The notes under the pieces: generated by a model
Told to the model about the DNA's origin: nothing
The model's database searches: none
Seen by the model: the letters and a program-made list of their open reading frames with translations, nothing else
Assembly (NCBI GenBank): GCA_040285745.1
Contig: JAUFOR010000007.1
Coordinates: 1 to 64,000, forward strand
Length of the DNA: 64,000 nucleotides
DNA from: Barthelona sp. PCE
Taxonomy: Eukaryota
Reading direction: 5' to 3'
Made by a program: the position numbers and the translations under genes
Shown: piece after piece, positions 16,357 through 47,096 of the stretch
How the letters are laid out: every line of letters starts with the position of its first letter
Numbering within the stretch: the stretch's first letter is position 1

Positions 16357-16419
16357 GTTAACGCAGTATAAACTTGAAAACGCATTTATCTTCCATCTCT
16401 TCACTTTCTTCCGTGTAAT

Positions 16420-17547
16420 ATGTTTGGGAGGAATTCTGGGCATCAATTGAAGCAAGAAATCAAACAGTTAAACCGTGAACCGGGTAACAAACGCTGTGCT
16501 GATTGTAACAGTCTTGGAGCTAACAATATCGTTGTAGATTTTGGTATTTTCGTATGTCCTTCGTGTGCTGGTATGCATAGAGATATGAATTTTGGAGTCA
16601 AAAGCTTATCTGCAGCTGTATTTACCAGAGATGATGTTAAGAAGGTTAAACAGTGTGGAAATGAAATGAGCAATAGCAAATTCCTTGCGGACATATCTGA
16701 ATCTATTCCTGATAAAAAGAACACTTCAGCATTCCGAAACTTTTTGCGAGAGAAGTATGTTAATAAGAAGTTTCTCTTCGACAATCATGGTGTTTTTGGT
16801 AACCAGAAGGAGGAAGCAGCAGTTAGCGCTACTGCTGCTGTTGAATCATCAAAAACAGAGACTACAGAGGCATTTAGCTGGGGAAATGCAGAAACACAAC
16901 CGCAAAATAATATGTTTTTGTTTGAAGAACACAAAAAGAAAGAAGAGTTCCTCCCGGAAGTACAACAACATACAAATGAGACAGAAAACTTCTTTTTTGA
17001 TGCTGAAGAACCCGTCTCAAAACCTACAGTTGCACAACAACCATTTTTTGAGGAAAAGAAACCTGCTTCTTCCAACGACGATATGTTTTCTTTCTTTTCT
17101 AACACACCAACAACTGTAATCAAAGAACCAACACCCAATAATGAACCCCAACCCACTAGCATAACAAAGACAGATGTTTCATTTTTTGAAATTGGACCTA
17201 AAAAGGTGGATAGTCAGCCAACCAAAGCAGAAACAAATTCTAATTCAAAAGATTTATTTTCTCTTCTTAACTTTGAAGAACAACCTAAAGTAACTGAGAA
17301 AAAGCCTGCTGCTGCTATGCTGGACTTCAGTTCTATTCAAGATAAACCTAAAGGTACTTCTTTTAGTGATTTAATTGGGAATATTCATGAATCAACTACG
17401 AAACGCTCCAAACCTGTATTTGGAACAGCTGTTAGTGGGACAAAACAATCTTCCAATCCATTCATGGACAATACATCTGAACCTGCACAACAACAGAATG
17501 CCACCCGGAAGAAAAATGCTAGTTTTGCTCATTTATTTGAGTTTTAA
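16420..17547 (+). CDS. ArfGAP-domain protein (AGFG/SMAP-like) with disordered adaptor-binding tail
   Basis: GNKRCADC-x16-CPSCAGMHR Zn finger with the catalytic Arg; VKSLS, GNE, FLREKY. The tail has FF, DLF, DMF and one NPF motif. Confidence 0.9.
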   Translation: MFGRNSGHQLKQEIKQLNREPGNKRCADCNSLGANNIVVDFGIFVCPSCAGMHRDMNFGVKSLSAAVFTRDDVKKVKQCGNEMSNSKFLADISESIPDKKNTSAFRNFLREKYVNKKFLFDNHGVFGNQKEEAAVSATAAVESSKTETTEAFSWGNAETQPQNNMFLFEEHKKKEEFLPEVQQHTNETENFFFDAEEPVSKPTVAQQPFFEEKKPASSNDDMFSFFSNTPTTVIKEPTPNNEPQPTSITKTDVSFFEIGPKKVDSQPTKAETNSNSKDLFSLLNFEEQPKVTEKKPAAAMLDFSSIQDKPKGTSFSDLIGNIHESTTKRSKPVFGTAVSGTKQSSNPFMDNTSEPAQQQNATRKKNASFAHLFEF

Positions 17548-17644
17548 ATATCAAACGTGTTCTTAGAGGGTTATTGAGTACTAGGTAATGTAAATATTAC
17601 GAGAAAATAGTGTTTCCACTTTTTTTTTTTTAATTCACGTGATT

Positions 17645-18763
17645 ATGGATTCCTTTGACGTTCTAAAACGTTGCATAAAACCACAAATTCTCGAAACGCT
17701 GGTTACACTGTCTAAAACTCTCAAATTCCCAGAACTGGCAGAAAGTATTCCAGTTCTAGCCGATATGAACCATACATTACTCCAATATCCAGCCACAACA
17801 CTCGAATGCCCGTCATACCTACTGCATTGTGCGAACATAACGGATGAATCAATTTTTGCACCACAAGCAATCATTCTTTGTCCAACAAGAGAAGTTGTGG
17901 TTGCTTTATCAGAATACAGTGAACAATTACTGGAGAAAACTTCCATTTTCACTGCAGGTTTTTGGGGAGGAACCAGTCTTGATGCAGATTTCAAAAAAAT
18001 TGCTCGAAATCCACAAATACTGATTGGTGCACCTGGAAGACTTATGCATATATTAAACGACTCCAAAATACCACTTTCCAATGTGAAAACAATAGTATTT
18101 GTCAATGCACATGGACTTCTAACGTCTGGTTTCAGCAACCATGTTTCTAACATTACCAATTTACTTCCTTCTAACGTACAAACTGTGTTTTCGGCGGTCA
18201 CGGTTGATACACACTTACAAAGAATCATAAACAGAATTGCACCAGATATTGTACGTATTTCTCAACCCCTTTCAGTTTTGTATGATAATATTGAACATTC
18301 TATGATCATCACACCGGAGAAATCTGAAGCAGCAATGAGAGATATGGTTTTAACCATTTTATCCAATGTATTATATACTCAATGTGTGATTTTTCCTCCA
18401 AACAAAGAAATAGAAGAATATGCACAATTTTTATCCTCAAATGGTATCCATTGTGCCGTTATGACAGGTGGATTACCTCAAGCAGAACGTGAACACCAAC
18501 TGAAATCTTTTAGAAACGGTAATTTGCGTGTTCTTGTTGGCTCAGGTGTTATTGAAGGTAATGTAATTCTGAGAAACATAGATTTAATCATAAATGTTGC
18601 CCCCATTTCGTCTCCACAATACGCTGCACATTGTACGTTGCTTAACATTACACGTGGAAAGCCAAGGTGTGTAACCATTTCAGGAAAAAGTTTTAACCTA
18701 CCACGGGTTCGAATTGGTAGAATTGACGTTGAAAATTTGGAAATACTTAACATTATAGATTAA
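17645..18763 (+). CDS. Degenerate DEAD-box helicase-like protein (probable pseudo-helicase; eIF4A/DDX20-like size and layout)
   Basis: Retains QAIILCPTRE (Ia), GG, GAPGRL (Ib), FSA, QCVIF and GGLPQAER..FRNG..RVLV. Walker A is absent, DEAD reads VNAH, and motif VI is degenerate. Confidence 0.75.
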   Translation: MDSFDVLKRCIKPQILETLVTLSKTLKFPELAESIPVLADMNHTLLQYPATTLECPSYLLHCANITDESIFAPQAIILCPTREVVVALSEYSEQLLEKTSIFTAGFWGGTSLDADFKKIARNPQILIGAPGRLMHILNDSKIPLSNVKTIVFVNAHGLLTSGFSNHVSNITNLLPSNVQTVFSAVTVDTHLQRIINRIAPDIVRISQPLSVLYDNIEHSMIITPEKSEAAMRDMVLTILSNVLYTQCVIFPPNKEIEEYAQFLSSNGIHCAVMTGGLPQAEREHQLKSFRNGNLRVLVGSGVIEGNVILRNIDLIINVAPISSPQYAAHCTLLNITRGKPRCVTISGKSFNLPRVRIGRIDVENLEILNIID

Positions 18764-19671
18764 ATTTCCTCTTCACTATCATCCTCCAGTGGAGCTCTCA
18801 ACACAACCGTTTCCTCTTCTTCTTCTTCTTCGTTTTCTGCATTAGCTTCTTCAACGGTGAGTAACCCAGAAGGTGCTTCTTGTGGCCAAATAAGTAGCTC
18901 AACATCAAACCCGATAGCTGAGTCTTTCGTCTGAGACACGTAACGTAATCCCATCAATCCTCTTTCATCGATGCGAATGGTGCACTCATCAATCTTTTTG
19001 GGGAGTGGAACACGCTGAGCCCCTTGTAATATATGGGGGTATCTTATCTCAAACGGACTATATATATTTAACATTGTAACACACGTTGATTGCGGTGATA
19101 TAACGGTTTTAGTCTTAAGTGCGACTCCTAAATTTTCAATAATCAATTCAGTGGCTTGTTGATTGCTTCTTAATAAAAAACATGTTCCTGGAAGATTGAA
19201 AAAAAACGATGGGTGGACACTACATCTCATATGGAACACAAGGTTCTGTAGTTGATCATATGGAATGCTGTCTTCCTGTTGTAATAGGCAAATTTCGTAT
19301 TCATAGAGTGGAGTCCTATTTATGAGAACTGAAAGACTTAAAACATCTATTGAACTCTCTTTTAACGCAATGACAAACTCATAGTGGCTTTCGTATGCGA
19401 GTGCATTTACCAAACTATTTAAAATAGTTAACAACTGCCTGGCTTTTACGCAAATAACAACAGGCATTGCTGATTCTAATGTATAATGTGTAAAAGTGGA
19501 ACTAGGAAGCACGACATATGAATTACTACTGCCAAACTTTGTGTGAAAAATAAGCTGCTCACTATTAACCTCAATTGTTAATAAAGCCTGTTTTGATGCA
19601 CCCCGACCAGCTGAGAGTTGCACCACGTCCATAAAGGTGCGTGCTGAATCAAGAACTAAGTGAAATACCAT
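18760..19671 (-). CDS. RAD1: PCNA-fold 9-1-1 checkpoint clamp subunit, Rad1-like
   Basis: ~300 aa. N-terminal LVLDSARTF, then LPSSTFTHY..ICVKARQLLTIL; C-terminal IRIDERGLMGLRY..VELLIWPQE plus acidic tail. This resembles the recalled Rad1 pattern IRTDxRGFLSLQY..VEYYCCPD. Confidence 0.6.
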   Translation of the reverse strand: MVFHLVLDSARTFMDVVQLSAGRGASKQALLTIEVNSEQLIFHTKFGSSNSYVVLPSSTFTHYTLESAMPVVICVKARQLLTILNSLVNALAYESHYEFVIALKESSIDVLSLSVLINRTPLYEYEICLLQQEDSIPYDQLQNLVFHMRCSVHPSFFFNLPGTCFLLRSNQQATELIIENLGVALKTKTVISPQSTCVTMLNIYSPFEIRYPHILQGAQRVPLPKKIDECTIRIDERGLMGLRYVSQTKDSAIGFDVELLIWPQEAPSGLLTVEEANAENEEEEEEETVVLRAPLEDDSEEEI

Positions 19672-31955: not shown

Positions 31956-32651
31956 ATGACAAATATACCACATGAGCTCGATGAAGAGCTGTTCACAGAA
32001 AATTTAAGTACGCTAGTGAATTCTCGTAACAGTAGCGTCTTAAGAATTAAAAAAGCAAGGGAGGAGCAGGCATCAAGTATGAGTTATCGGACAAACATAT
32101 ATACAATGGGCAAAATTGTAATTAATCATCCCAAATTTTCGGATGCCATTGTTTCAAGCGGATCAACATTATCTGTCAATCACAAAACCCACTCTCTTCA
32201 CGGGAAACAGCTGTTTCTATCTACACTAGCAATGCTATCGTGTAAGACAAAGTGCCGGATATGCATTATTGATGTCTTGGGTTCTCTTTTACTTTCACAG
32301 CTTGATTTCGTCACAAACAGTGTGGAAAACACCGATTGCATTCATTTATTAAGAATAGAAACCCTTGCCGAACTGATGAGTGTTCAAGAACGGATATTAC
32401 CAGTTTATGACTATATCTTTACCATCAACCTTTCCGCTCTTAACAACACATTCAGTTCAAATTACTCACCCAACACATTTTATTCGTTCCTAATTGAGTA
32501 CGCGACATATAGCAATACTACACTTTATTTCTTTGACAAACAATCATATCCTTGCGACATCACTGCACACATAACAACAGTTCATGGGCGAGAGTACTTT
32601 CGCACTATTGCGATGGATGAGCCATCGTATTTTTTTCCTCTTTCTCGATGA
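31956..32651 (+). CDS. Highly divergent RAD51-paralog-like (RAD51D/XRCC2-type) RecA-fold protein
   Basis: Order of elements fits RecA-fold paralogs: SGSTLSV..SLHGKQLF (Walker A-like), RICIIDVLGSL..SQL, DCIHLLRIETLAEL, YIFTINLSAL (Walker B position lacking Asp). Confidence 0.45.
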   Translation: MTNIPHELDEELFTENLSTLVNSRNSSVLRIKKAREEQASSMSYRTNIYTMGKIVINHPKFSDAIVSSGSTLSVNHKTHSLHGKQLFLSTLAMLSCKTKCRICIIDVLGSLLLSQLDFVTNSVENTDCIHLLRIETLAELMSVQERILPVYDYIFTINLSALNNTFSSNYSPNTFYSFLIEYATYSNTTLYFFDKQSYPCDITAHITTVHGREYFRTIAMDEPSYFFPLSR

Positions 32652-35100
32652 GGGCTGTCAAATCACTAACGACATCCCGCGCATCCTTTTTGGATGTCAA
32701 ATACAAATCCCATAGGATGGCCTCCTCTTGCTCGAACGCCTTCCTCATTTTCACCGGGAAGTTGATGAGCGTTCTGTTGCTCTGGAACTTTTTGCATGCA
32801 ACAGGAGAGTGGAACATGGCACATAACTCATTCTTTGACATTCGTGCCAGGTGAACAAGACTCTTATAACCCTTGCTGTGTATGTACTCGTGAAAATCTA
32901 ATAAACCAACGTTGCGTGGTATTCCTTGTGGGAATCTAATCATACAGATGCAATCTGGTAAATAGTGGTTATCTTTGCTAAACAGGGCATGGGCGTGTAT
33001 AAGAAGTTGGAATAGCTGTCTTTCATTTCTGAAGTAACGTTCGCCCAAGAAAATTTGTAACAGGGAAAGACAGTCTGAGGAACGCTTGTGCACAGGTGAA
33101 CATCGCAAAACCTGACAGAGCGACTCGTACAAGAAAACAAATAGATCAGCAGGGATCACATCGTGTTGCTGTAGTGACAAAAACTCTTCAATGACAAAAC
33201 CTGCATCCTGCTCACTTCTATACGTAAGCAACTGAGGTTTTCCTTTGAAGAAGAGTCTTAGTGGATCGATTAGGCTGGGCATTTCGTCCTCGAATATGCT
33301 GCATCGAATGACGTTGCAGATTTCACCAATATCAATGCGACTTGCTGAGATAGCACAGGTAATACGTTCCAGTAATTCAATGAGTGCGCACACAGACCAT
33401 GGAAGTTCGTTGTGACTATGTCTCCTTTCGAAGCGCCACACGTCCAGGAACCCTTTCTTGTAGTCAAAGTACTTACTTAGGAGGCGCTCAAACGTACATG
33501 GGGATACTACACCTTCGGTGCTGTACATTGCGCTGCGTGAGAAATCAAGGTATGAAACATGCCACGCAGTAACAATGCCATCCGCCAGGCCGTTAACGAA
33601 TGCCATAGCATGGTCTTTGGGTTTTTTCCCCAAGTACGACGCAAACTGTTGCGATAAAGATGATAAACGTGTTGCGTAAAGATACTCAACAGTTTCATCG
33701 AATATAGAACCGCACACAATACTGTCGAAAGCAAACCGGATGTTACCATAATTCACAATTGTTGGATCAATCCTTAAAAGAATAGGAGCCATTATCTTGT
33801 GGTAGATCTCAGCGCCACCCTTCTTAAAATCAATACTGCTGTTAAGACCCCCTGAAAACGCAGCCAACAACACGCACATATCGTGGACGTCGTCGCTACT
33901 CGTGGCACTAAATATTGGAACATCTACAACACATAGCTTAGTGACGTCTCCCAACAAAATCTGTAGCAGAGATCCGAAATCAAGCTCGTCCTTCATTGCT
34001 ATGAGAGGGAGAAGACCATATGAGAGACCGCTTAAGACAAAGCGGACATTAGAAGATGAGAATATTTGACACAAAACGCTGGCCAACGCAATGGTGTCCG
34101 TACGTGACATGTTGCCCCAAATGGCCTCGAAGTCGTCCAGTACAATGGTGACGGGCCCCTTAAGGGTTGCCTCAATGGAGTCAAAAAGAGCAACGAATTC
34201 GCGGTATAACTGATATGATTCCGCGCTGAGATTAAGGTTATCGGGTAGGTTGAGTTCACTTTTGATCTCAAACTGTGTGGGTTCTTCATCAACAGGATCA
34301 TCATCGATGAATGGATTGGGTACAACGGAAGACATCTCGACATTCGATGACAGTGGCAGACGAGGAGGGACCTGACGACGGTGGCGCAGGGTATTCTGGA
34401 AATCGGGCACAACTGTTGGTGCTGGATACACCTCCTTCATTGGTGAAGATACAGGAGTGTGCATCACTGATAAGCTTGATGCTCGTTCAAGGACAGGGGA
34501 TGTGTGAGCCCTTTTGATTGTCTTCTTACCCCAAGGGCTACGCAACCCGAAGTTCTTAAGCGAAAATGCGTTTTCTGTGTTACCGATCTCTGGCTCATTC
34601 TGCCAATCAACCGATCGCAAAATTTGTGAATGAATTCCCAACAGAAGAGCGCGAAGGCGGGCTGCAAGGGGGTCTGCTTGCGAGCAGAATGCAAAGAGAT
34701 CTGCTGGAACATCAAGAGCATTCATAGAAAGGTAGCACATAGTAACACTGCTCTTCTGCAGACATTGATCAATCACAGAAGGAAGAATATGACGTGCAAC
34801 TGTTGTAATACCCGACCCAACCTGGCCCCGCACAAAGAAAACATTCGTATCCTTATGGGATGTAATGTGCGATTGAACTTTGTCATATATGGTGTTAATA
34901 CCACAAAAAAAGTCCGTCTTTCCCTCGTGGGTTGTGTATGCAACAGTGTTTTTGCCCTCATGTGACAAAAAACCCTCAATTGAAGTTGGTAATTTATGTA
35001 AAACGGTTGAATTTGAGTTTAAAAGAGAATAAGACTGCTCCATCATCATTGATGCTGATCTCTTAAGAGAGATCAGATTCTTTATAAGACTTTCAGACAT
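32605..35100 (-). CDS. STAND/AAA+-like P-loop protein with degenerate Walker A
   Basis: FFCG..VFFVRGQVGSGITT (Lys replaced by Ile), CYLSM, Walker B TIVLDDFE, sensor-like RFVLSG. Start set at MSESLI. Confidence 0.65.
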   Translation of the reverse strand: MSESLIKNLISLKRSASMMMEQSYSLLNSNSTVLHKLPTSIEGFLSHEGKNTVAYTTHEGKTDFFCGINTIYDKVQSHITSHKDTNVFFVRGQVGSGITTVARHILPSVIDQCLQKSSVTMCYLSMNALDVPADLFAFCSQADPLAARLRALLLGIHSQILRSVDWQNEPEIGNTENAFSLKNFGLRSPWGKKTIKRAHTSPVLERASSLSVMHTPVSSPMKEVYPAPTVVPDFQNTLRHRRQVPPRLPLSSNVEMSSVVPNPFIDDDPVDEEPTQFEIKSELNLPDNLNLSAESYQLYREFVALFDSIEATLKGPVTIVLDDFEAIWGNMSRTDTIALASVLCQIFSSSNVRFVLSGLSYGLLPLIAMKDELDFGSLLQILLGDVTKLCVVDVPIFSATSSDDVHDMCVLLAAFSGGLNSSIDFKKGGAEIYHKIMAPILLRIDPTIVNYGNIRFAFDSIVCGSIFDETVEYLYATRLSSLSQQFASYLGKKPKDHAMAFVNGLADGIVTAWHVSYLDFSRSAMYSTEGVVSPCTFERLLSKYFDYKKGFLDVWRFERRHSHNELPWSVCALIELLERITCAISASRIDIGEICNVIRCSIFEDEMPSLIDPLRLFFKGKPQLLTYRSEQDAGFVIEEFLSLQQHDVIPADLFVFLYESLCQVLRCSPVHKRSSDCLSLLQIFLGERYFRNERQLFQLLIHAHALFSKDNHYLPDCICMIRFPQGIPRNVGLLDFHEYIHSKGYKSLVHLARMSKNELCAMFHSPVACKKFQSNRTLINFPVKMRKAFEQEEAILWDLYLTSKKDARDVVSDLTALIEKEEKNTMAHPSQ

Positions 35101-35155
35101 CGAAAAGGATAGAAATGACTTAACACTCGTATTACCATTTATTTTCCTTTTCATC

Positions 35156-38100
35156 ATGCTATCTAAGGTGGAAGCTGTGCTTCCTAGCGATTTCTATGAT
35201 AGCTTAGCGTTATTTTTACCCATTATTTCGATTTTGTGTGTGATAAATCTGTTCCTTTTCTTTAAAAACTTCGGTTCATTCGCCCATGCAGCTAAAATCA
35301 ACATCGTTCTCTATGTAGGAGTTTGCGTTACAACTCTAGGAACAGTTGTTGCTCTTTTAGTTTATGTTATAAAATTGTTGGGACATGACCCTAATGATTT
35401 CTCTAGGATTGTTGCTGTTATATGCTGCATAGGTGTATGCACCACAATGGCTTTTTCAAGTGTGTATTCACAACGTTGGAGAGTTAATAGCTTCTCTTTG
35501 TGGATTTCATTGGTTGCAGTGCTGTTAACAGTCGCAATCACACTTATAATCCCCATACAAAGGAGCACATATAGTTTTATGACTATGTTCTTTGCTTTTT
35601 CACTTCTCAACTTTGTATTTCTCGCTATTGCAGTATACTTCTGGTCTCCTATTGGTACTTTCGATAGGAAGATGCTGTTTGAGCACCAGGTAGCTCCTTT
35701 TGTTGCGAAAAAGAACGGATGGATCGGTACACTCAGCTATTTGTGCAGCGTAATTCTATTACTGATATTTGCACTAATTCATAAGAATAAGGATCCATCA
35801 GGTTCCCCCTATCTCGGATTTCTGAGCGCTGCTATCATGGTTGCTGTTGATATAACATTGTTCTTTATGAAAACACCATTCGTCATTAACAATCCCGTAT
35901 TCTTTTTATCATTATTTGCTGTAGCCCGCGGTATCCTGGTACTTTGTAGTTATAATTATTTTTTCCTCGGTCACGCTGGCATTTTATTCATTATTATTTT
36001 AAGCGTAGGCGCAAATGTTCTCGGAATGCACAGAAAATCGGTTGTCACGGTCATGCTATCAATTCTTTCAGATGTTGATACGAGACCAAAGGCTCTCGTA
36101 AACTTCGAGTCCCTCTCCTTCTTAAACTCAACATTGTTTGTTGGATTGCTTCTCACAGTTCTTTTTGGTGTTGATTTTGTCATTGCAATCATCAAACCTG
36201 ACTCATTTAACATTCCAAAGATTACAATGCTGGATACTGCTCATGAACAGTGGGTATTTGGTGTTGGTGCTATTCTCATTGCTTTAACCGTTCTTTTGTG
36301 GTGGCAAGCAACTCGTGATGTTCAAGAAACTGACATTAACCCAATTATTTCATCTGAGAAGAGCGCTTCATTCATGTCTTGTGTGTCAAAAAAAACACTT
36401 ACATACTCAGTATGGTTTGGAGTTTGGCTTTTAGCAAGCACTCTGCTGGGGTTCTGGATGACAGAATCCTCAATGATCTTGTTTGCGGGTCTGTTCATTT
36501 TCCCAACCGTGTTCCTGGCAACATGGCTCCTACTACTCGTCCGCAAGTCCGACTTCAACAGAAAGAAATCGGCGGAGGTCACTTCCCCAATAATATGGTT
36601 AAGTGTTCTGATTACGGTGTTTGTTCTCCTGAATATTGTTATGACACTCATCTTCCTCAGTGATTTGAGCGGAGTACAGATTTTATATTGTATCATTCCA
36701 CCTCTGTACGTAATTGCTAACCTGTATACTGCGTCAAAGTACTCACATCATCTCTCCACATTGAGGATTGTCTTATTATTAATCACTTTCATATTGGCAA
36801 CATTAGGCACTGTTTTGGGTTTCATGTCTTCTCAAAGGGTAGCAGGTGGTACGTTTTTGATTGCTCTGTTTGTACTATATATCTCCATCCTTCGCAAATC
36901 AATTGGTGTATCAGGAAACATGACTGGAGCTCACAAAACACAACTAATGCTTCTTTACTGTCTTTTATTCTGCGGCTCTGTTGCCACTCCAATCGTAGCA
37001 GGCTATTCTATCATCTTTGCAATCACAACAGCTGTTGGCCTGATCGGTCTTTCAATTTTTGCATATATTATATACAGTTACTTTAAGAGCGATAGATATC
37101 TTTCAAAGAGTCTCAAGACGTTGCTGTGGGTGTGTCTCGTCATTATGTTTGCAGCCGCCCTCAGCGTTACTTTCCAGGGAACTGGTGTATTCTGGGGTTT
37201 GTCGATGGTTGTCATGTTACTTGTTGCTGTTCTAGTAATATATAGCTCTCTCAATTTCCCATTCCCGTTTGTCAAAACATACCTCCATTGCTTCGTGTCG
37301 AAGCGTATCTTCCCAATTAATCATTATGACGACAATATGCGCTCAGCAATTTCCTTGAATTTCCCTGTCGCGTGTATGTTTTCTGGTGTCATTATTGCAA
37401 TGATATGGGCATTTATAGCCTCTTACTGGATTGATCCACCACAGTTCGGCCTCGGTTGTCTATTTTTATTGGGATCTTGCTTTGTATTGCTCGTGTACCA
37501 CCTGAAGTCGTTGAACTCGACCATCGTGCACAAGTACGGTAACATAACAAGCCTTAATGTCGTGAAGGCGTTCCGTACAGCTTCTACTCGATACAGCGCC
37601 AACCCGCCAGCCCCAACAACACGTAATAACGATGAACCAGATAATATCGATCAAATAGAACTCATTGTTGATGTTGACGATGTTTTTATTGCTGATGTTG
37701 ACTATAAACAGGCAAAGAGTGTATCGGACCTCGCCAAGGTATTTGATCGCTTCGAAAAGGAGAGTAACTTCTGCTGCGAGGTTTTATACAACATTTTAAT
37801 CAACATTGAGAGTGTTAACACAGACACTGAGACCGATCTCTTTGCCTTCATTTCTTCAGAGCTCAAGGGAATGGGAATGAACACATCCACGATGATGAAG
37901 TGGTCTGAAGATATCGTCAGTGTCTGGCGCGACCGTTTTGAAGAGTACAAAAAGAATCGTTCAGAAGACAAGCAATTTGTTCGTTTGCTAATTGATGCTG
38001 AGAATCAAGGCAGAACTGATATCACCGACGATGAGTTCAGGACTCAGCTAAGCGTTGAGTGGGTGAACTGTAAGCGTACTATTGGCACATTGCTCCGTGA

Positions 38101-38545
38101 TTGTACTGAAGTAACACAAAACACGAAAAAGGCACCTAAACTCCGCCGTATGGTCGATAAGATGGGTGTTCCCGAAGCACCTGAGACTGCAGAAGCCAAG
38201 GAAGTCTCATATGAGATCCAAGATTTGTATTTCGAGTCGCAAAACGTTTTGCAAGAACTGTCATTCTTCAAAGGTGTGTACGATGATCCAGTTGTAATGA
38301 AAAAGTTTGTTGTTTTACCAAAGGGAGACAATTCTCCTGGTGCACGTGAGCACGCTATCTCATCTTGTATTCGAACTATTCACAAACAATACAGCAATAA
38401 GGTCGATATTGTAACAGAGATGTATGATGATATGATTGAGTTACGTGATGAGTTTAAGATGCTTCAAAAAGCACTGGACCAGAAGAACCGTGAGCGTATG
38501 ATGGCAGAAATGTCAGCAAACAAGGAGGTTAAGGTTGAGTTGTAG
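35156..38545 (+). CDS. Multi-pass (~23 TM) membrane protein resembling the membrane (MEM/TML) domain of DEK1-type calpains, with no protease domain
   Basis: About 23 hydrophobic segments counted by eye. Motif SKRIFPINHYD..WAFIASYWIDPPQFG (~37298-37450) matches the recalled DEK1 segment SPRVLPVYVYD..WGVVASL.IYPPFAG. Followed by a ~340-aa soluble helical tail. Confidence 0.75.
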   Translation: MLSKVEAVLPSDFYDSLALFLPIISILCVINLFLFFKNFGSFAHAAKINIVLYVGVCVTTLGTVVALLVYVIKLLGHDPNDFSRIVAVICCIGVCTTMAFSSVYSQRWRVNSFSLWISLVAVLLTVAITLIIPIQRSTYSFMTMFFAFSLLNFVFLAIAVYFWSPIGTFDRKMLFEHQVAPFVAKKNGWIGTLSYLCSVILLLIFALIHKNKDPSGSPYLGFLSAAIMVAVDITLFFMKTPFVINNPVFFLSLFAVARGILVLCSYNYFFLGHAGILFIIILSVGANVLGMHRKSVVTVMLSILSDVDTRPKALVNFESLSFLNSTLFVGLLLTVLFGVDFVIAIIKPDSFNIPKITMLDTAHEQWVFGVGAILIALTVLLWWQATRDVQETDINPIISSEKSASFMSCVSKKTLTYSVWFGVWLLASTLLGFWMTESSMILFAGLFIFPTVFLATWLLLLVRKSDFNRKKSAEVTSPIIWLSVLITVFVLLNIVMTLIFLSDLSGVQILYCIIPPLYVIANLYTASKYSHHLSTLRIVLLLITFILATLGTVLGFMSSQRVAGGTFLIALFVLYISILRKSIGVSGNMTGAHKTQLMLLYCLLFCGSVATPIVAGYSIIFAITTAVGLIGLSIFAYIIYSYFKSDRYLSKSLKTLLWVCLVIMFAAALSVTFQGTGVFWGLSMVVMLLVAVLVIYSSLNFPFPFVKTYLHCFVSKRIFPINHYDDNMRSAISLNFPVACMFSGVIIAMIWAFIASYWIDPPQFGLGCLFLLGSCFVLLVYHLKSLNSTIVHKYGNITSLNVVKAFRTASTRYSANPPAPTTRNNDEPDNIDQIELIVDVDDVFIADVDYKQAKSVSDLAKVFDRFEKESNFCCEVLYNILINIESVNTDTETDLFAFISSELKGMGMNTSTMMKWSEDIVSVWRDRFEEYKKNRSEDKQFVRLLIDAENQGRTDITDDEFRTQLSVEWVNCKRTIGTLLRDCTEVTQNTKKAPKLRRMVDKMGVPEAPETAEAKEVSYEIQDLYFESQNVLQELSFFKGVYDDPVVMKKFVVLPKGDNSPGAREHAISSCIRTIHKQYSNKVDIVTEMYDDMIELRDEFKMLQKALDQKNRERMMAEMSANKEVKVEL

Positions 38546-38656
38546 TAGTATGTCATCAGTTTTTGATATTTCTTTTGGACCAGTGGTCCCTAGCAAATAT
38601 TCAATGTGTTACAATTAATAATTTGTAATAAACAATGTAAAACTTGATTTAAATTT

Positions 38657-38666
38657 TTTTACCCTT
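38657..38666 (+). promoter_or_regulatory. TTTTACCCTT candidate core-promoter/initiator motif upstream of the calpain ATG
   Basis: The same TTTTACC core occurs shortly upstream of five other start codons in the window. Confidence 0.45.
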
Positions 38667-38682
38667 TTCATTTAAAATAACC

Positions 38683-41600
38683 ATGGACGAAGACTTTGGA
38701 GAAGAGTACTATGAGTACGACATGGGGGAGGACGGCTATCAAGAAGCTGAATATCAGGAAGATGAGTATTATGAAGGAGAAGAAGACGAGTATGTCGATA
38801 ATGCAAATGAAGAAGGATATTACGATGAAAACGGTGAATACTGTGTCACAGAAGAGCAAGTAGAACCAGAGGATACTGGTTATTACGATGATGAAGGTAA
38901 CTACATTGAATATACAAATGAAGACGAAGAATACGCTGGATATTATGATGAAGACGGCAACTATGTTGAAAATACCAATGATGAAAATTACGCTGCAGAA
39001 GAAGATGCTGGATATTATGATGAAGACGGCAACTATGTTGAATATGCCAATGATGGTGAAGAATACGTTGAAGAAGGTGAAGAATACATTGAAGAAGGTG
39101 AAGAATACATTGAAGAAGGTGAAGAATACGTTGAAGAAGAAGATCTTAACGATGATTATTGGGGTTATGAGGGTGAAGAGCCTCAATATGATGATGAGGA
39201 GGGTGAGTATGGCGAAGAGAGACCCTTTAAGTTATATGGAGCCACTGAAGAAAGTTCTGTTACAGAGAAATATGAAGCAGTGCGTGAAGCACTTTTGGAT
39301 CATTTATTTGCATCATTGGAAATTGGTGGAGAATATGATATCCTGAGTCTCAACGTTGCGTTGTGCAATACTCATGTGATGGCGTGCATGGATAAGTTGC
39401 CTTACATCGAACAGTATGGTGAAGCCGTTACCAAACAATTGAAGAAGCTTGAAAGAACAAACGTAGATCCAGAACTGTATACTAAATATCAAACATCCGA
39501 GGAATATTACGTGAAGAAGGCTGCTGAGTTTAAGGAAAAGCTTATTCCACTCAAGGATCGCTTCCAGAATATGTGCATGTCCAGTGAGGGAGAGGAGATA
39601 GTAGACCACGTTCTTGCTGAGTTTGATCGTTCCGGAGAGGTTGAGCAATCCATTGAAATATGGTGGGATGTCGGCACCACCAAGATTGCTGAGATCATGG
39701 AAAAGCAGAAGCAAGAGAGTGACTTGGTGAGAACGTTCATCGAGGGTATGTTGCGAGATGTTGAGTCAAACGATGAGGCTGTACGTAAGATCTACAATTA
39801 CGTCAAGGATCTGGCTGATAAACATCAGGAAGCTATTGATGATGTTAGGTATGCTGAGATGCACCGCATTGAGGCTGAGAAGATTGCTAAAAGGCAGGAG
39901 ATTGTCAATGCGCGGGAACGTGAGCATTTGAAGAAGCTTCAAGAGGCTAGAGAGGCTAGAAGACTCGAGATTCGACGCCAAAACGAAGAAATGATTGCTA
40001 AACAGGCAATTGCTGATGCTGAACGCCAAGAGAAACTGCGTATCTTGCGAGAGGAGGCCGCAAGGGAGTTTGCAATCGAAGAGGAAAAAAGACAGAAGGA
40101 GATCCAGTTGCAGATCAAGTTGTTCAAGCAGGGTCAAGCTATTGATGAGTACTACCGTAAACTAATAATTTGGGAGCGAGAAGAAGCAGCGAGAAAGGAG
40201 CGTGAACGTATTGCAGCAATTGAGGCCGAGCGTCTTCGTTTAATTGAGCTTGAGAAGCAGAGGATTGCTGCTGAGAAGGAAAGACAGCGCTTAATCTTCG
40301 AGCAACAAGAGCGTGCAAGAAAAGCTGCGATTGAAGCTAAGCGCCAAGCCGCTCTTGAAGCCAAGCGCAAAGAGCAGGAGCGTTTCCGCGAGGAGCAACG
40401 ACGTGCTGCAGAAGCTGAGCGAATTAGACTTGCAAATGAGGCTGCAGAGGCTGCCCGCAAGGCTGCAGAGGCTGAGCAAACAAGACTTGCAAATGAGGCT
40501 GCTGCAGCTGCAAAAGCTACCCGCCAGGCTGTAGAGGCTGCCCGCAATGAAGAAGAGCGCTTGGAGCAGGAGCGCTTGGCCGCAATTGAAGCTGAGAAAC
40601 AGCGTGTTGCCGCAGCAGAGCGTAAGCGCATTGAGGAGCAACGTAGAAAGCAGGCTGATGAGCGCCGTCTCGCTGAGCTGGATCAACAACGCCAGCGTCA
40701 GGAAGCTGAACGTAAGCGTATTGAAAAGGAGCGTGAAGAGCGCAAGGCAGAAGCAGTCAGACAAGAAGAAGAACGTTTACGCCGCGAGTATGATATAAAG
40801 CAGCGTCAGGCAAAAATCAACGAGTGTAAGAACAGATTGACTCAGACTGGTATCCCCAACGACGAGATTAATGAGCTGCTGGAGAGGTTTTCTGCTGAAA
40901 AACCCTTCAACGAAGACGAAATGTACAAGGATGTTATGCAGGCAGTTGCAACGGAGGCTCAAGGTGGTGCGCTTGCTCGTCAGCAGATGCAAGATGCTGG
41001 TATTGACGTTGATCTGGGGTACACGCCCATCGGCTTTGCTAAATCAACAGTGAAGACAATTCCGAAAAACCCGACTCCAAGGATTGTCAATAGAGGTAGC
41101 AAGTACACTCAAGAGCTAAGCAAGCGGCAGATGGCGCATAATTGGAAGTCGGATATTGGCTGGAAGCGAATTAGTGAGATTGATAGTTTGAATGATTCTG
41201 TTTTATGGAACGGTAGTGGTCCAGATCCTCTAGATTTCGAACAGGGTTCTATGGGTGATTGTTACCTAATATCCAGTATGAATGCGTTGTGCGCAGACCC
41301 TGAGTATCGTCCGTTTTTAATGGATGCCTTGGTTGAAATGGATAGACCTAACGGTTACTATAAGTTTCGATTCTTTGACAAGGAGGAGAACATCACTTAC
41401 GTCGAAATCGACGACTACATCCCAGTTAAAGACGGTGATAAAATTGTTTGTTGTGAGCCACATAATAATTGTATCTTTGCAGTTTTGCTTGAAAAAGCAT
41501 TTGCTGTGCTACGGGGTGGGTATGGAGCGATTGGCCATGGTGGAACCTCAACTGATGCTTTTGTAACTATATGTGGAGGAGAAGCAGATTTTTGTACAAC

Positions 41601-42384
41601 TTTTGAAGAATTTAAGGGAACAGAACGTCAACGTTTTTACAAGGCAAAGGCGATATTTGACCGCGGCGTTATGTGCTGTAGTGATAGTGATAAAACTACG
41701 CTTGCTGATGACCAGGGATTGATTACCCAGCATTTATACGCTGTGCTTGATATGAAGGAAGTTGGTGGACGATTTTTCGTCAAAGTACATAACCCTTGGC
41801 GTGGTACGGAAATCAATGCCGCTAACAATAGGTATGCGGACGAAAATTTACCTGCAGATGTGAGACAAGCATTTTCACATCAAACTGCTAATGATGGTAC
41901 GTTTATTATGTCATGGTCCGACTTTGACATCCAATTTGGTGATATTTCATATGGATGGCCACTGTTTCAATACACTCATAGAGCTTCTGTTTCTGGAAAG
42001 ATCACAATGCAAGATAATTTCATATCGAAAACAATCTCAACGGCCCCGAAATGGGAGATTCATGCTTCAAAGCCTGCCAATTTCAAGGTTTTCGTTCAGG
42101 TGAAGAACCAGAGCGCTAACTGGAAAGTAACACCGTGTTACTTGCAGCATTTACCTCGCAAAGATGAGTTCTACATTCCTAAAACTTGGTCTACCAACTT
42201 GATTGATTACGCTGCGACTAACAGTTCGAGCATGCGTTCCAATCCCTTGAATTTCCGTCTCGATTTTGATGGTTTCAGATTCTTCGTTTCGTTTTTAAGC
42301 TGGTTGGACGATGAACCCGTTTATTGTGATTATACTATTCATGTTGTTGGTGAAACCGACTTCTGTCTGTTCAGAGTCCGATAA
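38683..42384 (+). CDS. Calpain (CysPc + C2L/domain III) with acidic Tyr-rich N-terminal repeats and E/R/K/A-rich helical linker
   Basis: Catalytic triad intact: QGSMGDCY (Cys ~41260), QHLYAV (His ~41731), HNPW (Asn ~41791). Also WKRISE, VEIDDYIP, LLEKAFA..GGY and DGTFIMSWSDF. Confidence 0.92.
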   Translation: MDEDFGEEYYEYDMGEDGYQEAEYQEDEYYEGEEDEYVDNANEEGYYDENGEYCVTEEQVEPEDTGYYDDEGNYIEYTNEDEEYAGYYDEDGNYVENTNDENYAAEEDAGYYDEDGNYVEYANDGEEYVEEGEEYIEEGEEYIEEGEEYVEEEDLNDDYWGYEGEEPQYDDEEGEYGEERPFKLYGATEESSVTEKYEAVREALLDHLFASLEIGGEYDILSLNVALCNTHVMACMDKLPYIEQYGEAVTKQLKKLERTNVDPELYTKYQTSEEYYVKKAAEFKEKLIPLKDRFQNMCMSSEGEEIVDHVLAEFDRSGEVEQSIEIWWDVGTTKIAEIMEKQKQESDLVRTFIEGMLRDVESNDEAVRKIYNYVKDLADKHQEAIDDVRYAEMHRIEAEKIAKRQEIVNAREREHLKKLQEAREARRLEIRRQNEEMIAKQAIADAERQEKLRILREEAAREFAIEEEKRQKEIQLQIKLFKQGQAIDEYYRKLIIWEREEAARKERERIAAIEAERLRLIELEKQRIAAEKERQRLIFEQQERARKAAIEAKRQAALEAKRKEQERFREEQRRAAEAERIRLANEAAEAARKAAEAEQTRLANEAAAAAKATRQAVEAARNEEERLEQERLAAIEAEKQRVAAAERKRIEEQRRKQADERRLAELDQQRQRQEAERKRIEKEREERKAEAVRQEEERLRREYDIKQRQAKINECKNRLTQTGIPNDEINELLERFSAEKPFNEDEMYKDVMQAVATEAQGGALARQQMQDAGIDVDLGYTPIGFAKSTVKTIPKNPTPRIVNRGSKYTQELSKRQMAHNWKSDIGWKRISEIDSLNDSVLWNGSGPDPLDFEQGSMGDCYLISSMNALCADPEYRPFLMDALVEMDRPNGYYKFRFFDKEENITYVEIDDYIPVKDGDKIVCCEPHNNCIFAVLLEKAFAVLRGGYGAIGHGGTSTDAFVTICGGEADFCTTFEEFKGTERQRFYKAKAIFDRGVMCCSDSDKTTLADDQGLITQHLYAVLDMKEVGGRFFVKVHNPWRGTEINAANNRYADENLPADVRQAFSHQTANDGTFIMSWSDFDIQFGDISYGWPLFQYTHRASVSGKITMQDNFISKTISTAPKWEIHASKPANFKVFVQVKNQSANWKVTPCYLQHLPRKDEFYIPKTWSTNLIDYAATNSSSMRSNPLNFRLDFDGFRFFVSFLSWLDDEPVYCDYTIHVVGETDFCLFRVR
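38935..39042 (+). repeat. Two identical 36-bp copies (38935-38970, 39007-39042) encoding AGYYDEDGNYVE
   Basis: gctggatattatgatgaagacggcaactatgttgaa occurs twice; two more diverged copies lie upstream. Confidence 0.9.
39055..39138 (+). repeat. Coding minisatellite, 4 x 21 bp (GEEY[V/I]EE)
   Basis: ggtgaagaatac(g/a)ttgaagaa repeated four times in tandem. Confidence 0.92.
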
Positions 42385-44054: not shown

Positions 44055-47000
44055 ATGATTAAGCGGGTTATTTTTTTAATATTCATTTTAATTGGATGTT
44101 CAATTGCAGATTCATCCAACCCATGCACATTTTTTGCAACTTATAATACAAATTCTTGCAATGGTGATATAACTGAGCTCAACGCTGATACTGGAGCACT
44201 TTTTATGCGTGTGGGTACATCATCAGCATTCATATCCGTTAACTGTTCACACACAAACTCAATTTTGTCTTCTAGGTGCTTTAAATCAGTGAATATGATT
44301 AATCACTTGGGGTTAGATAAGGTAGACAGTTCATCCAAACAATTTGTTGTAATCAGTACAACGAAGAACATCGAAGATCTAAGCAACATCACGTTTTTAA
44401 CATTTTCTCAGAGTTTTCTGCACAAAACGTCTCAATACCCCCATGGATTAAGCATGTTCAACGTGCGCGTATCAGTTCTATGCTCTTTTTCATGTTTTAA
44501 GAAAAAAATTGTCACAAACCCTCATCTTTTTATTCATGTGTTTGATATTGTCCAGAACGTACCACTTCTCAACCGTGCAGTGCCCTTTGTACTCGGATCG
44601 CCCGAGTACAACATCACAAACAGCTTTTACCAAAAGGGCTTCTTCGGACGGAATGAGCTGCTGGCTATTGCCGATAGTGGATTGAATTTGTTCTCCCCAT
44701 TCCTTTACGATTCAGCCGGCACGATCATATACAACTCAGAAACCCCCAGTAATCACCGCAAGGTCAAGTACTATTTCACAGAGTACGGTGATAGTTTCGA
44801 TCTCAATGGTCATGGTACTACCGTTGCATCATGTGCAGCTGGAAGTGTGTATGACTCATGCGACAATCTTATCGGATACAATGGGGTCTCAGATGCGTTC
44901 ATCCACTTCCAGGACCTTAGCACCTCAGAAGGGACAAGTATAACCGTCCCGCCCGACATTGCTAATGATCTATTCGTTCCAGCCGCCGACAGAGGCGTGT
45001 CTGTACACTCCAATTCGTATGGTGGTGGTCCGTATCTGTACAGTTATCAGGACCTCGGCCTAGATGCAACTGCCGAACACTCTCATCACATGCTCATAGT
45101 CGTTGCTGCAGGAAACGCTGGTACTAGCGGATTTCAGACAGTCATGACCCCTGCGGCAGCCAAAAACTCGCTTTCTGTGGGAGCTACAGTACATCGTGCT
45201 GAGGGATACAGGCGGTATTGTTGTTTGATGGGTTATGAATGTTGTTCAAGTGATAGCATCAGCGACGGTGACGCAGTGGCGTATTTTTCGTCACGTGGTC
45301 CAATGGCCAACGGTGCAATGGGAATTGACATCGTAGCACCGGGTTCAAAGATCTTAGCTGGAAAAGTAGTCACTACACCCTTGCCCGGAGATACACAGAA
45401 CTGCACAGAGTCCACAACAGACAGTAACTCGTTGTTGGGGTATGTTGACGGTACATCCTTTTCTGCACCGATTGTAAGCGGTGCAGCTATTCTTATCAAG
45501 GAGTGGATGGATGCAGAGTACACTAACTTGAACAATTCACTGTACATGAACGCTTCATTCGTCACAAACACACTGCTGAAGGCACTTGTACTGGGAGGCG
45601 CTGATTATGATTATGTTGATACGGCCTATATGGTGCGGCCGTCAGATTTCATTAAAGTAGCGTATCTGAGACCTTTGCCCGCCTTTGCTAAGCCATTCTT
45701 TGTTGGGTTTGGACTGCTCCGCGCAGATAAAAGTGTTCCCATTAACAATGATTTCGATTTGGTTGCCGAAGATCTCACCATCTACCCTCTGAAATTCTAT
45801 GTCTTTGATCTGGTCGTCCAGAACACAACCACAATCACGATCGCCTACAACGATGAGCCAGTCTTTCCGGGCTCTGATAACCCCATTGTCAATATTGTGA
45901 ACCTTGCTCTTCGCAGAACAGATCAGTGTCTGTATTACTTTGAGAATGAGTTTGACCTGACTGGAATGAGTATTGAGCATAATGTGACATCCGACAGGGA
46001 AAAAATAGATCGCAATACCGTTAAGAAAATAGTGGTTGGACCGGGTTCCTACTCAGGTAAATTTTTCATTCAACAGAGTTCTGGCACAGCGCTAAATATT
46101 AGTCTCGCCATAAACGGACACTTCCAATACGAAAACCTTACAAAACACTCGTATCTGACATTTGTTGAGGTTACAGAACGAGACAGTCAAATGGATTGCT
46201 GCAACCCAGGGACCGCACAGTTGACACGTGGTGGGTTCTGTGTATGCTCTGCCTTTTCCTATGGACCATTTTGTAACGGAAGCGCTACTATAGTCAATCA
46301 GAAGATTTCTGTGGAAAATTTAACTGTCAAATATGAGATGAAGAACATTGTGCACTTCAACAATTGGATCAACATGTATGATATGTTTTACTTTCGAGTT
46401 AACACATCCGGTATCGTTGCACGAACATTACTTCTTGAGATGAAACCCTTGTTGGTTTCAAGAGAAGCAAATTTGAAGCTCGTGATTCCTGACTACTCAT
46501 TGGCTGTGCACCATGAGGGTGCTAGTACTTATATACCAGCAACACCGCATTTTTTCAATGACACCAGTCGTTCAGATTTTTTCTATGCGGTCGACGAAGA
46601 AATTCACTTATTTGCCGTGGAAGCAACTATCCCAAGCAATGTCTTGGATGCTATATTCGATTCAAGTCACTTCATTGATGCAATTGATGATGGTTACCTG
46701 TACGATTGGGCACTTAACGTATCTATGGAAGTTACAACGACCATGTGTCTTCCACAATGCCACATCAGTGGCGGCTCCTGTGAATTCAGCAGCTTGACAC
46801 CATGGAGATCTATCACGACCTGGATATTTGATAAAATCCACTCATTTGAACCAAAAGACATTGATGTAGAAGTTGTAGATGGTGAAGAGTACTCCCACTT
46901 GTGCAAGTGCACTTCTTCCAAATACGGCAGTGCATGTGAGAACAGCATTTTTGCTCACAATGCTTCGGTTTTGTGGTTTAGAACCATTATTTTCATGCTA

Positions 47001-47096
47001 CCAGTTTATTGTTTGATCATGATGTTTTCTCCACCAAAAACCGAGCTGAAACGCAAAAAGGATGAGGCAGAACAAAAAATTGATGATGTTGTATAA
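44055..47096 (+). CDS. Membrane-anchored subtilisin-like serine protease (S8, KP-43/TagB-like) with EGF-like modules
   Basis: Signal peptide; catalytic IADSG, NGHGTTVA, oxyanion AAGN, GTSFSAP; HSNSYG, TPAAAKN, FSSRGP; Cys-rich EGF-like segments; C-terminal TM. Confidence 0.9.
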   Translation: MIKRVIFLIFILIGCSIADSSNPCTFFATYNTNSCNGDITELNADTGALFMRVGTSSAFISVNCSHTNSILSSRCFKSVNMINHLGLDKVDSSSKQFVVISTTKNIEDLSNITFLTFSQSFLHKTSQYPHGLSMFNVRVSVLCSFSCFKKKIVTNPHLFIHVFDIVQNVPLLNRAVPFVLGSPEYNITNSFYQKGFFGRNELLAIADSGLNLFSPFLYDSAGTIIYNSETPSNHRKVKYYFTEYGDSFDLNGHGTTVASCAAGSVYDSCDNLIGYNGVSDAFIHFQDLSTSEGTSITVPPDIANDLFVPAADRGVSVHSNSYGGGPYLYSYQDLGLDATAEHSHHMLIVVAAGNAGTSGFQTVMTPAAAKNSLSVGATVHRAEGYRRYCCLMGYECCSSDSISDGDAVAYFSSRGPMANGAMGIDIVAPGSKILAGKVVTTPLPGDTQNCTESTTDSNSLLGYVDGTSFSAPIVSGAAILIKEWMDAEYTNLNNSLYMNASFVTNTLLKALVLGGADYDYVDTAYMVRPSDFIKVAYLRPLPAFAKPFFVGFGLLRADKSVPINNDFDLVAEDLTIYPLKFYVFDLVVQNTTTITIAYNDEPVFPGSDNPIVNIVNLALRRTDQCLYYFENEFDLTGMSIEHNVTSDREKIDRNTVKKIVVGPGSYSGKFFIQQSSGTALNISLAINGHFQYENLTKHSYLTFVEVTERDSQMDCCNPGTAQLTRGGFCVCSAFSYGPFCNGSATIVNQKISVENLTVKYEMKNIVHFNNWINMYDMFYFRVNTSGIVARTLLLEMKPLLVSREANLKLVIPDYSLAVHHEGASTYIPATPHFFNDTSRSDFFYAVDEEIHLFAVEATIPSNVLDAIFDSSHFIDAIDDGYLYDWALNVSMEVTTTMCLPQCHISGGSCEFSSLTPWRSITTWIFDKIHSFEPKDIDVEVVDGEEYSHLCKCTSSKYGSACENSIFAHNASVLWFRTIIFMLPVYCLIMMFSPPKTELKRKKDEAEQKIDDVV

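Follow-up and report, generated by a model that had tools for sequence, protein, structure and literature searches.

Adjoining membrane and calpain genes in Barthelona sp. PCE

A 64,000-nt stretch of the Barthelona sp. PCE genome (assembly GCA_040285745.1, contig JAUFOR010000007.1, positions 1 to 64,000; this whole stretch is called the window below) carries two adjoining open reading frames (ORFs) on the forward strand, gene 1 at 35156-38545 and gene 2 at 38683-42384, separated by 137 nt (38546-38682). Gene 1 encodes a protein with many membrane spans, related to the MEM (or TML) domain of membrane-anchored calpains such as plant DEK1, and gene 2 encodes a soluble calpain with the protease core CysPc. 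An earlier prediction made from the sequence alone (the original prediction) had described a protease-less gene with ~23 transmembrane segments, followed 137 bp later by a calpain with no transmembrane segment, and this description holds: gene 1 has 21 hydrophobic peaks by hydropathy and 23 helices in an AlphaFold2 (AF2) model, and gene 2 has no hydrophobic peaks and matches Peptidase_C2 (E 1.3e-38). These are the only MEM ORF and the only CysPc ORF in the window. The closest protein for comparison is P0002, a fused MEM-Linker-CysPc-Calpain_III protein of 1934 aa from the same organism (PCE1_002316, KAL0233810.1). The features of the locus, all on the forward strand, are as follows.

35132..35136 (+), TTACC before gene 1, 24 nt upstream of the ATG; promoter- or initiator-like and recurrent in the window
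35156..38545 (+), gene 1, MEM-plus-proximal-linker protein of 1129 aa; protease domain absent; nearest relatives are fused MEM-calpains
35156..37546 (+), MEM domain of gene 1, aa 1-797, with 21 membrane spans by hydropathy and 23 by AF2 helices
37289..37450 (+), most conserved MEM signature, aa 712-765; the FP..YD motif in a beta hairpin, then W751...PP.FG by the second-last helix
37547..38542 (+), soluble tail of gene 1, aa 798-1129; the first ~200 aa are the counterpart of the P0002 proximal linker
38543..38566 (+), end of gene 1; TAG TAG, followed 6 codons on by TGA in the same frame
38546..38682 (+), intergenic gap of 137 nt; GC 0.248, each of the three frames interrupted by stops
38627-38632 and 38636-38641 (+), AATAAA and TGTAAA, poly(A)-signal-like hexamers after gene 1
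38659..38663 (+), TTACC before gene 2 (within TTTTTTTACCCTTTTCA), 24 nt upstream of the ATG
38683..42384 (+), gene 2, soluble calpain of 1233 aa
38683..39192 (+), acidic Tyr-rich N-terminus of gene 2, aa 1-170, recognized by composition; contains 21-nt tandem repeats
39880..40842 (+), E/A/R-rich charged helical segment of gene 2, aa 400-720; its likeness to the charged linker of barthelonid fused calpains is mainly one of composition
41131..41946 (+), CysPc core, aa 817-1088; Peptidase_C2 match
41260-41262, 41731-41733 and 41791-41793 (+), catalytic triad codons for Cys860, His1017 and Asn1037, all present
41947..42381 (+), C-terminal all-beta domain of gene 2, aa 1089-1233; C2-like by predicted fold only

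Gene 1 and the MEM domain of membrane-anchored calpains

The 21 non-overlapping hydrophobic peaks of gene 1 (Kyte-Doolittle) end at aa 783, and the AF2 model, built on a 30-row alignment, places 23 long helices within aa 11-797 (mean predicted local distance difference test (pLDDT) 64.9, predicted template modelling score (pTM) 0.67). The model further contains a beta hairpin at aa 712-733 and helical structure at aa 856-1003, the remainder of the tail having pLDDT < 50. The two motifs that had been said to bracket the last two transmembrane segments lie around the second-last helix (735-758): SKRIFPINHYD begins at aa 715, directly before this helix, and WAFIASYWIDPPQFG begins at aa 751, at its C-terminal end. 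Across the 30-row MEM alignment, P720 alone is invariant and just F679 and W751 come close to it; gene 1 keeps all three residues. A Pfam scan of gene 1 (E <= 0.01) detected no family and no protease domain, a word-indexed search returned only the query itself, and an ESM Atlas search gave no usable match. A Foldseek comparison of the model with the Protein Data Bank returned nothing at E <= 0.001 (best E 0.018, TM-score <= 0.19), which is weakly informative for a model of >1000 residues with this mean pLDDT.

Relatives were found with phmmer against 1.84 billion representative proteins (cut-off E <= 0.001), which returned 13 proteins including the query. Four of these are full-length relatives: P0002 (E 7.1e-64), P0003 (1533 aa, E 4.1e-35), P0004 (1805 aa, E 8.8e-23) and P0009 (1489 aa, E 3.4e-5). 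Two are from Barthelona sp. PCE, one is from Barthelona sp. PAP020 and one from Eukaryota sp. TZLM1-RC, so that barthelonid and skoliomonad metamonads account for the whole set; all four carry a C-terminal Peptidase_C2 domain, and 3/4 also carry Calpain_III. The remaining matches are P0011, which has an fn3 domain, and seven fragments of <=541 aa without a Pfam family. Hydropathy profiles of the relatives closely follow that of gene 1, with 21 peaks ending at residue 785 in P0002, 21 ending at 782 in P0003 and 20 ending at 784 in P0009. By BLASTP, gene 1 aa 120-1002 align on P0002 127-1022 (25% identity, E 1e-66), and a MEM hidden Markov model made without gene 1 recovers it at E 1.1e-88. The similarity extends beyond the membrane region into the proximal linker, where gene 1 aa 798-1000 and P0002 790-1000 give a shuffle z of 5.0.

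The DEK1-type relationship that the original prediction proposed for the membrane protein emerges from profile comparisons. A search with the P0009 core found 343 proteins, the best 120 of which are mostly plant DEK1, together with skoliomonad, Anaeramoeba and Polarella membrane calpains. With hhalign, gene 1 alone matches the skoliomonad MEM (probability 99.5%, E 3.5e-23) and a Polarella-containing group (E 4.4e-12). Gene 1 combined with three Barthelona MEMs matches seven plant DEK1 MEMs over 411 columns (probability 98.1%, E 1.3e-13), the matched span being gene 1 aa 330-768 on DEK1 631-1094, and the skoliomonad profile matches DEK1 at E 6e-24. Seven reversed-template controls gave E 0.019-0.42 and probabilities <=2.4%, and the MEM signal therefore exceeds what hydrophobic composition alone produces. 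The DEK1 motif given in the original prediction is also correct, as it aligns with real DEK1 sequences: the gene 1 segments ...SKRIFPINHYDD... and ...WAFIASYWIDPPQFG... align over DEK1 SPRVLPVYVYDAHAD and GWGVVASL.IYPPFAG.

A careful maximum-likelihood (ML) tree of the MEM domain (22 rows x 819 columns) groups gene 1 with P0002 and P0003 of Barthelona PCE (95/86), then with P0004 of PAP020 (99/97) and then with the skoliomonads (98/95), and a quick MEM tree agrees with it. P0002 is the nearest row to gene 1. The gene 1 branch is long (1.93), yet it lies inside a clade of otherwise all fused proteins. These sequence comparisons establish true homology between gene 1 and the MEM/TML domain of membrane-anchored calpains. 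We note separately that a distant metagenome protein, P0016 (1387 aa), is MEM-like, with 20 hydrophobic peaks, fn3 as its sole Pfam family and no calpain core; proteins of the P0016/P0011 type are a possible second case of a MEM module without a protease.

Gene 2, a divergent calpain

Upstream of its protease core, gene 2 encodes, in order, an acidic Tyr-rich segment, a helical part and the E/A/R-rich segment. The acidic N-terminus, described as novel in the original prediction, is made up of 31% E, 18% Y and 14% D over aa 1-170, and its coding sequence contains a tandem repeat at 39055-39139 (period 21, 4 copies, 96% matches). The Cys/His/Asn triad is intact, as had been claimed. Peptidase_C2 is the sole Pfam family in gene 2 (E <= 0.01), and no penta-EF-hand (PEF) was detected at this threshold. 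The best solved relative is calpain-8 (E 2.5e-18), the core resembles generic calpain clusters in the ESM Atlas (score 0.96), and a word-index search with aa 790-1233 returned only the query itself. An AF2 model of the same residues (pLDDT 74.2, pTM 0.77) places the core on that of calpain-3 (6bdt_C) with Z 30.3 and a root mean square deviation (rmsd) of 2.7 over 283 residues.

The C2L domain assigned to gene 2 in the original prediction stands at the level of fold and not at the level of sequence. The last 145 residues are all-beta in the AF2 model (block pLDDT 57-83, with one loop below 50) and superpose on calpain C2-like domains: m-calpain (3bow_A) aligns through domain III, with model residues 6-437 against chain residues 28-506 (Z 29.3, 403 aligned, rmsd 7.9), and the distal C2L of calpain-7 (2qfe) aligns with Z 10.1 over 127 residues. 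Calpain_III was not detected by Pfam (E <= 0.01) or by local profiles of 3 and 54 rows, and a marginal local match of gene 2 APKWEIHASKP..FKVFVQV to the NPQF block (E 0.044) involves a single sequence. The tail is thus only partly confirmed as a C2L domain, at the moderate confidence of a predicted fold. Within the core, the block NPWG..EW.G.WSD reads NPWRGTEINAANNRYADEN; NPW is kept, and widely conserved calpain motifs are altered or lost. Because the core motifs are altered and the gene 2 branch is long, Ca2+ dependence of this protease, as judged from its sequence, is uncertain.

The boundary between the two genes

Several features of the gap support the earlier view that the break is real, namely the TAG TAG ... 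TGA succession at the end of gene 1, an AT-rich composition (GC 0.248, compared with 0.407 in gene 1 and 0.443 in gene 2) and the TTACC 24 nt before the gene 2 ATG. Both strands of the window together hold 28 ORFs of at least 200 aa, and window-wide counts of motifs and stops use the 26 large ORFs taken as genes. TTACC occurs within 70 nt upstream, on the same strand, at 9 of these 26 ATGs (10 hits compared with 1.55 expected), and AATAAA or TGTAAA occurs within 100 nt past the stop in 16/26 ORFs (18 hits compared with 2.15 expected). In the gap, the hexamers lie between the gene 1 stop and the gene 2 TTACC. A fuller form of the upstream element, TTACC followed by C/T-rich TTTC(A), recurs 10-45 nt before ATGs, for example at 35132, 38659, 56040, 62604, 31039 and 55068. 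The TTACC element and AATAAA/TGTAAA may serve Barthelona sp. PCE as core promoter and poly(A) signals, respectively. The 137-nt spacing is inside the range of intergenic distances in the window, and the break, in its sequence, resembles the ordinary spacers between genes in this genome; we infer two separate transcription units.

Origin of the gene pair

We consider it likely that a single-chain type-2 membrane calpain (MEM-Linker-CysPc-C2L) was split by lineage-specific gene fission within the linker. Both genes are collinear with fused P0002, as expected of the ancestral domain order that the original prediction had assigned to them: beyond the gene 1 alignment, gene 2 aa 559-773 align on P0002 964-1178 (E 0.005) and aa 849-1081 on 1541-1776 (E 8e-21), so that gene 1 and then gene 2 map in the same order on one protein. 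Gene 2 aa 170-816 also resemble the P0004 linker (shuffle z 5.4), mostly through composition. Common descent of both genes from one ancestor is argued from their adjacency, shared strand and ancestral order and from their being the sole MEM and sole CysPc ORFs of the window. Fission in this lineage would follow because fused membrane calpains occur in plants, SAR, Thecamonas and metamonads (PMC10762896, PMC3563603) and because the MEM tree places gene 1 within a group of fused proteins. The gene 2 core has evolved very fast, which suggests changed constraints after such a split.

Several results weigh against fission. The hhalign comparison of gene 1 alone with the plant DEK1 MEM fails (probability 7%), and the link of gene 1 to DEK1 is therefore transitive, through metamonad proteins. 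Against P0003 and P0004 of Barthelona, both divergent in their own right, the gene 2 core scores just 49.9 and 42.4 bits, and the likeness of the gene 2 charged segment to the P0002 linker is mostly one of composition (shuffle z 2.8). The history of the core was further analysed with 25 membrane-calpain cores and 31 soluble cores (28 ORFs from a metagenome scan and three stored proteins), the soluble proteins having 0-1 hydrophobic peaks in all cases and a closed N-terminus in most. In the careful ML tree of CysPc (57 rows x 314 columns), the end branch leading to gene 2 measures 3.43 changes per column and clusters, unsupported, with further long branches; constraining gene 2 to group with the 28 soluble calpains costs 6.1 log-likelihood (lnL) units, with p 0.316 in the approximately unbiased (AU) test. 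A fused paralogue or further calpains may also lie outside the 64-kb window.

An alternative is chance or secondary adjacency, in which gene 1 lost its own protease and gene 2 is an unrelated soluble calpain that came to lie downstream. Besides the unrejected soluble grouping, this explanation can draw on the highest-identity row to the gene 2 core in the tree alignment, which is a soluble protein (SOL_L053, 28% over 263 columns), on the missing Calpain_III sequence match in gene 2 and on the existence of a protease-free MEM-like protein in P0016. However, the AU test is just as far from rejecting a group of gene 2 and the three barthelonid TML cores (6.7 lnL units, p 0.311), and the CysPc tree is uninformative on the origin of gene 2 because of its long branch. 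A 20-row alignment showed no convincing indel common to gene 2 and the barthelonid cores. Pairwise phmmer scores of the gene 2 core lean slightly towards membrane calpains, with 94.5 bits for the top-scoring Anaeramoeba TML calpains, 82 for P0009 and about 75-80 for DEK1, against 68.4 for the best solved classical calpain. An unrelated calpain would, moreover, have had to land on the same strand, in ancestral order, 137 nt away from the only MEM gene within 64 kb and as the only CysPc gene there, with both genes collinear with P0002; by inference, the prior for a calpain as neighbour is roughly the number of calpain genes divided by the total number of genes. Adjacency of this kind is, on balance, unlikely.

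Still less probable is that a hidden intron, recoding or an assembly error masks one continuous MEM-Linker-CysPc protein. The close relatives are all single chains, the ORFs adjoin one another in the same orientation and in ancestral order, and 227 frame-preserving GT..AG pairs can be drawn across the gap on paper. Against this, the two ORFs are in different reading frames and the gap has stops in all three, so neither a single indel nor stop reassignment joins them; the gene 1 frame alone meets TAG, TGA and TAA in the gap. A sense reading of TAG was set aside too, since it would lengthen gene 1 by just 6 codons up to the TGA and since other ORFs use each of the three stop codons (TAA 20, TAG 4 and TGA 2 over the 26). 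An intron joining the ORFs would need to begin upstream of 38543 and could close no earlier than the AG at 38691-38692, since the gene 2 frame is stopped by a TAA at 38650-38652, with no AG following until 38691, a position already inside gene 2. The last 300 nt of gene 1 contain no GTATGT or GTAAGT donor, the sole GTRWGT being GTGTGT at 38274; CTAAC is absent from 38200-39000, and the candidate acceptors are all within purine-rich coding sequence. The gap instead bears the 3' and 5' motifs typical of genes in the window. A decaying locus, recently disrupted and with one or both halves becoming pseudogenes, would account for the extreme divergence of the gene 2 core (end branch 3.4) and for its loss of widely conserved calpain motifs, including those of the NPWG..EW.G.WSD block. 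We regard it as very improbable, given frames open over 1129 + 1233 codons, retention of the triad and the NPW motif, a modelled core that still superposes on that of calpain-3 at Z 30.3, retention of the invariant MEM positions and a gap with regular gene-end and gene-start motifs in place of leftover coding sequence.

Genomic setting

The 26 genes fill ~92% of the window, a very compact eukaryotic stretch, and interruptions were seen in none of these large ORFs. The neighbours are ordinary eukaryotic housekeeping genes, encoding DEAD-box helicases, Brix, ArfGAP, DOCK, Kelch, Rad50-like ATPase, Mob1, Sof1-type WD40 and subtilase proteins, and Rfam and tRNA scans of the window gave no matches. 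The largest gene, a 3311-aa ORF at 143-10078 (+), is without a Pfam family at E <= 1e-5. A subtilase at 44055-47096 (+) (1013 aa, Peptidase_S8 E 3.5e-34) lies two genes downstream from the calpain; by eye, its N-terminus and a stretch close to its C-terminus look hydrophobic, and it may be a membrane-bound or secreted protease. Packing is tight, and in the following pairs neighbouring ORFs share 4 to 47 nt at their ends when each is taken from its earliest possible start.

13417-16455 (-) and 16420-17547 (+), overlapping ORF pair
17639-18763 (+) and 18760-19671 (-), overlapping ORF pair
31956-32651 (+) and 32605-35157 (-), overlapping ORF pair

The ORF at 32605-35157 (-) is divergent to gene 1, and its nominal start falls 2 nt inside the gene 1 start codon. 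Codon 20 of this ORF is also an ATG (MSESL...), and the sequence ahead of it, TATCCTTTTCG, is similar to the CCYTTTC element found before genes 1 and 2. This codon-20 ATG is probably the true start, leaving ~55 nt of intergenic space to gene 1.

Comparison with known membrane calpains

The nearest fused protein, P0002, resembles the gene pair in its MEM domain (21 peaks, with ends at 785 and 783), its charged helical linker and its CysPc, which is 29% identical to that of gene 2. Unlike P0002, which is one polypeptide with a Pfam-detectable Calpain_III domain, the pair consists of two genes and gene 2 is without a Pfam Calpain_III match; the acidic Tyr-rich N-terminus of gene 2 has no counterpart in P0002, and the combined linker is longer (~1150 aa compared with ~710 aa). 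With plant DEK1 the pair shares a MEM domain homologous at profile level, the FP..YD / W...PP.G signature, the CysPc triad and, by predicted fold only in gene 2, a beta-sandwich after the core. Plant DEK1, however, is a single chain of ~2150 aa, and the LGL domain is described as unique to streptophyte DEK1 and as distinguishing it (PMC10762896); Laminin_G_3 (PF13385) was not matched in gene 1 or gene 2 by Pfam (E <= 0.01). Lacking the streptophyte LGL domain and being two chains, the pair is, by its sequence features, DEK1-type in its parts and not DEK1 in the strict sense. It differs as well from classical calpains (CysPc-C2L-PEF), as gene 2 has no Pfam-detected PEF.

The four membrane-anchored calpain types defined in PMC10762896 are all single chains. 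The TML calpains of Trichomonas vaginalis, of type 1 (MEM-Linker-CysPc without C2L; Zhao et al. 2012, PMC3563603), illustrate that domain make-up varies among metamonads; they are still single chains, in which the change is loss of C2L and not separation of MEM from CysPc. No split MEM/CysPc form was found in the literature searched; Supplementary Table S1 of the review (54 non-plant membrane calpains), which is outside that scope, may bear on novelty. An artificial parallel exists in Arabidopsis, where dek1-3 CALPAIN-OE plants, with a MEM-only transcript and a separately expressed calpain, are viable (Tran et al. 2017, PMC5647327). Like that line, the Barthelona locus has a MEM-only part and a separate soluble calpain, but the separation is natural, between adjoining genes, and not a product of overexpression. 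Also in a metagenome, we observed two proteins, P0018 (2226 aa) and P0019 (2051 aa), with four tandem CysPc cores each and essentially no membrane helices.

Implications for the function of the membrane and protease parts

If fission took place, gene 1 would have retained the ~23-helix MEM domain and the proximal linker, and gene 2 the charged helical segment, the CysPc core with its triad and the predicted beta-sandwich tail, while acquiring the acidic Tyr-rich N-terminus. The protease would then be made as a free cytosolic protein, and the MEM protein would remain in the membrane as an autonomous module with its own function. Both outcomes are to be expected because of plant experiments with the detached calpain moiety: the CysPc-CBSW moiety of DEK1 alone rescues dek1 mutants (PMC10762896, citing Johnson 2008 and Liang 2013), and dek1-3 CALPAIN-OE keeps a mechanically activated Ca2+ current, with inactivation 6-8 times faster (PMC5647327). 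The role of MEM in DEK1 itself is debated, with a channel, a transceptor and a plain anchor all under discussion (PMC10762896). Any coupling kept between the two Barthelona proteins would act in trans, through a local MEM-linked Ca2+ signal or by docking of the two former linker halves. That the pair forms such a working two-component system, with the autonomous MEM protein (acting as a mechanosensor coupled to a Ca2+ current or as a scaffold) controlling the separate calpain in trans by either route, is a tentative proposal, and one that we hold to be doubtful at present.

A split of this kind would place fission alongside the gains and losses already known for calpain domains, and it would be a natural evolutionary counterpart to the plant experiments with a detached calpain moiety. 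The MEM protein of Barthelona sp. PCE could be expressed and studied without its protease, and the locus offers a natural test of whether the membrane and protease parts must be joined. Should the two-component proposal prove true, the covalent link kept from plants to protists would be dispensable, and MEM would have a function of its own.

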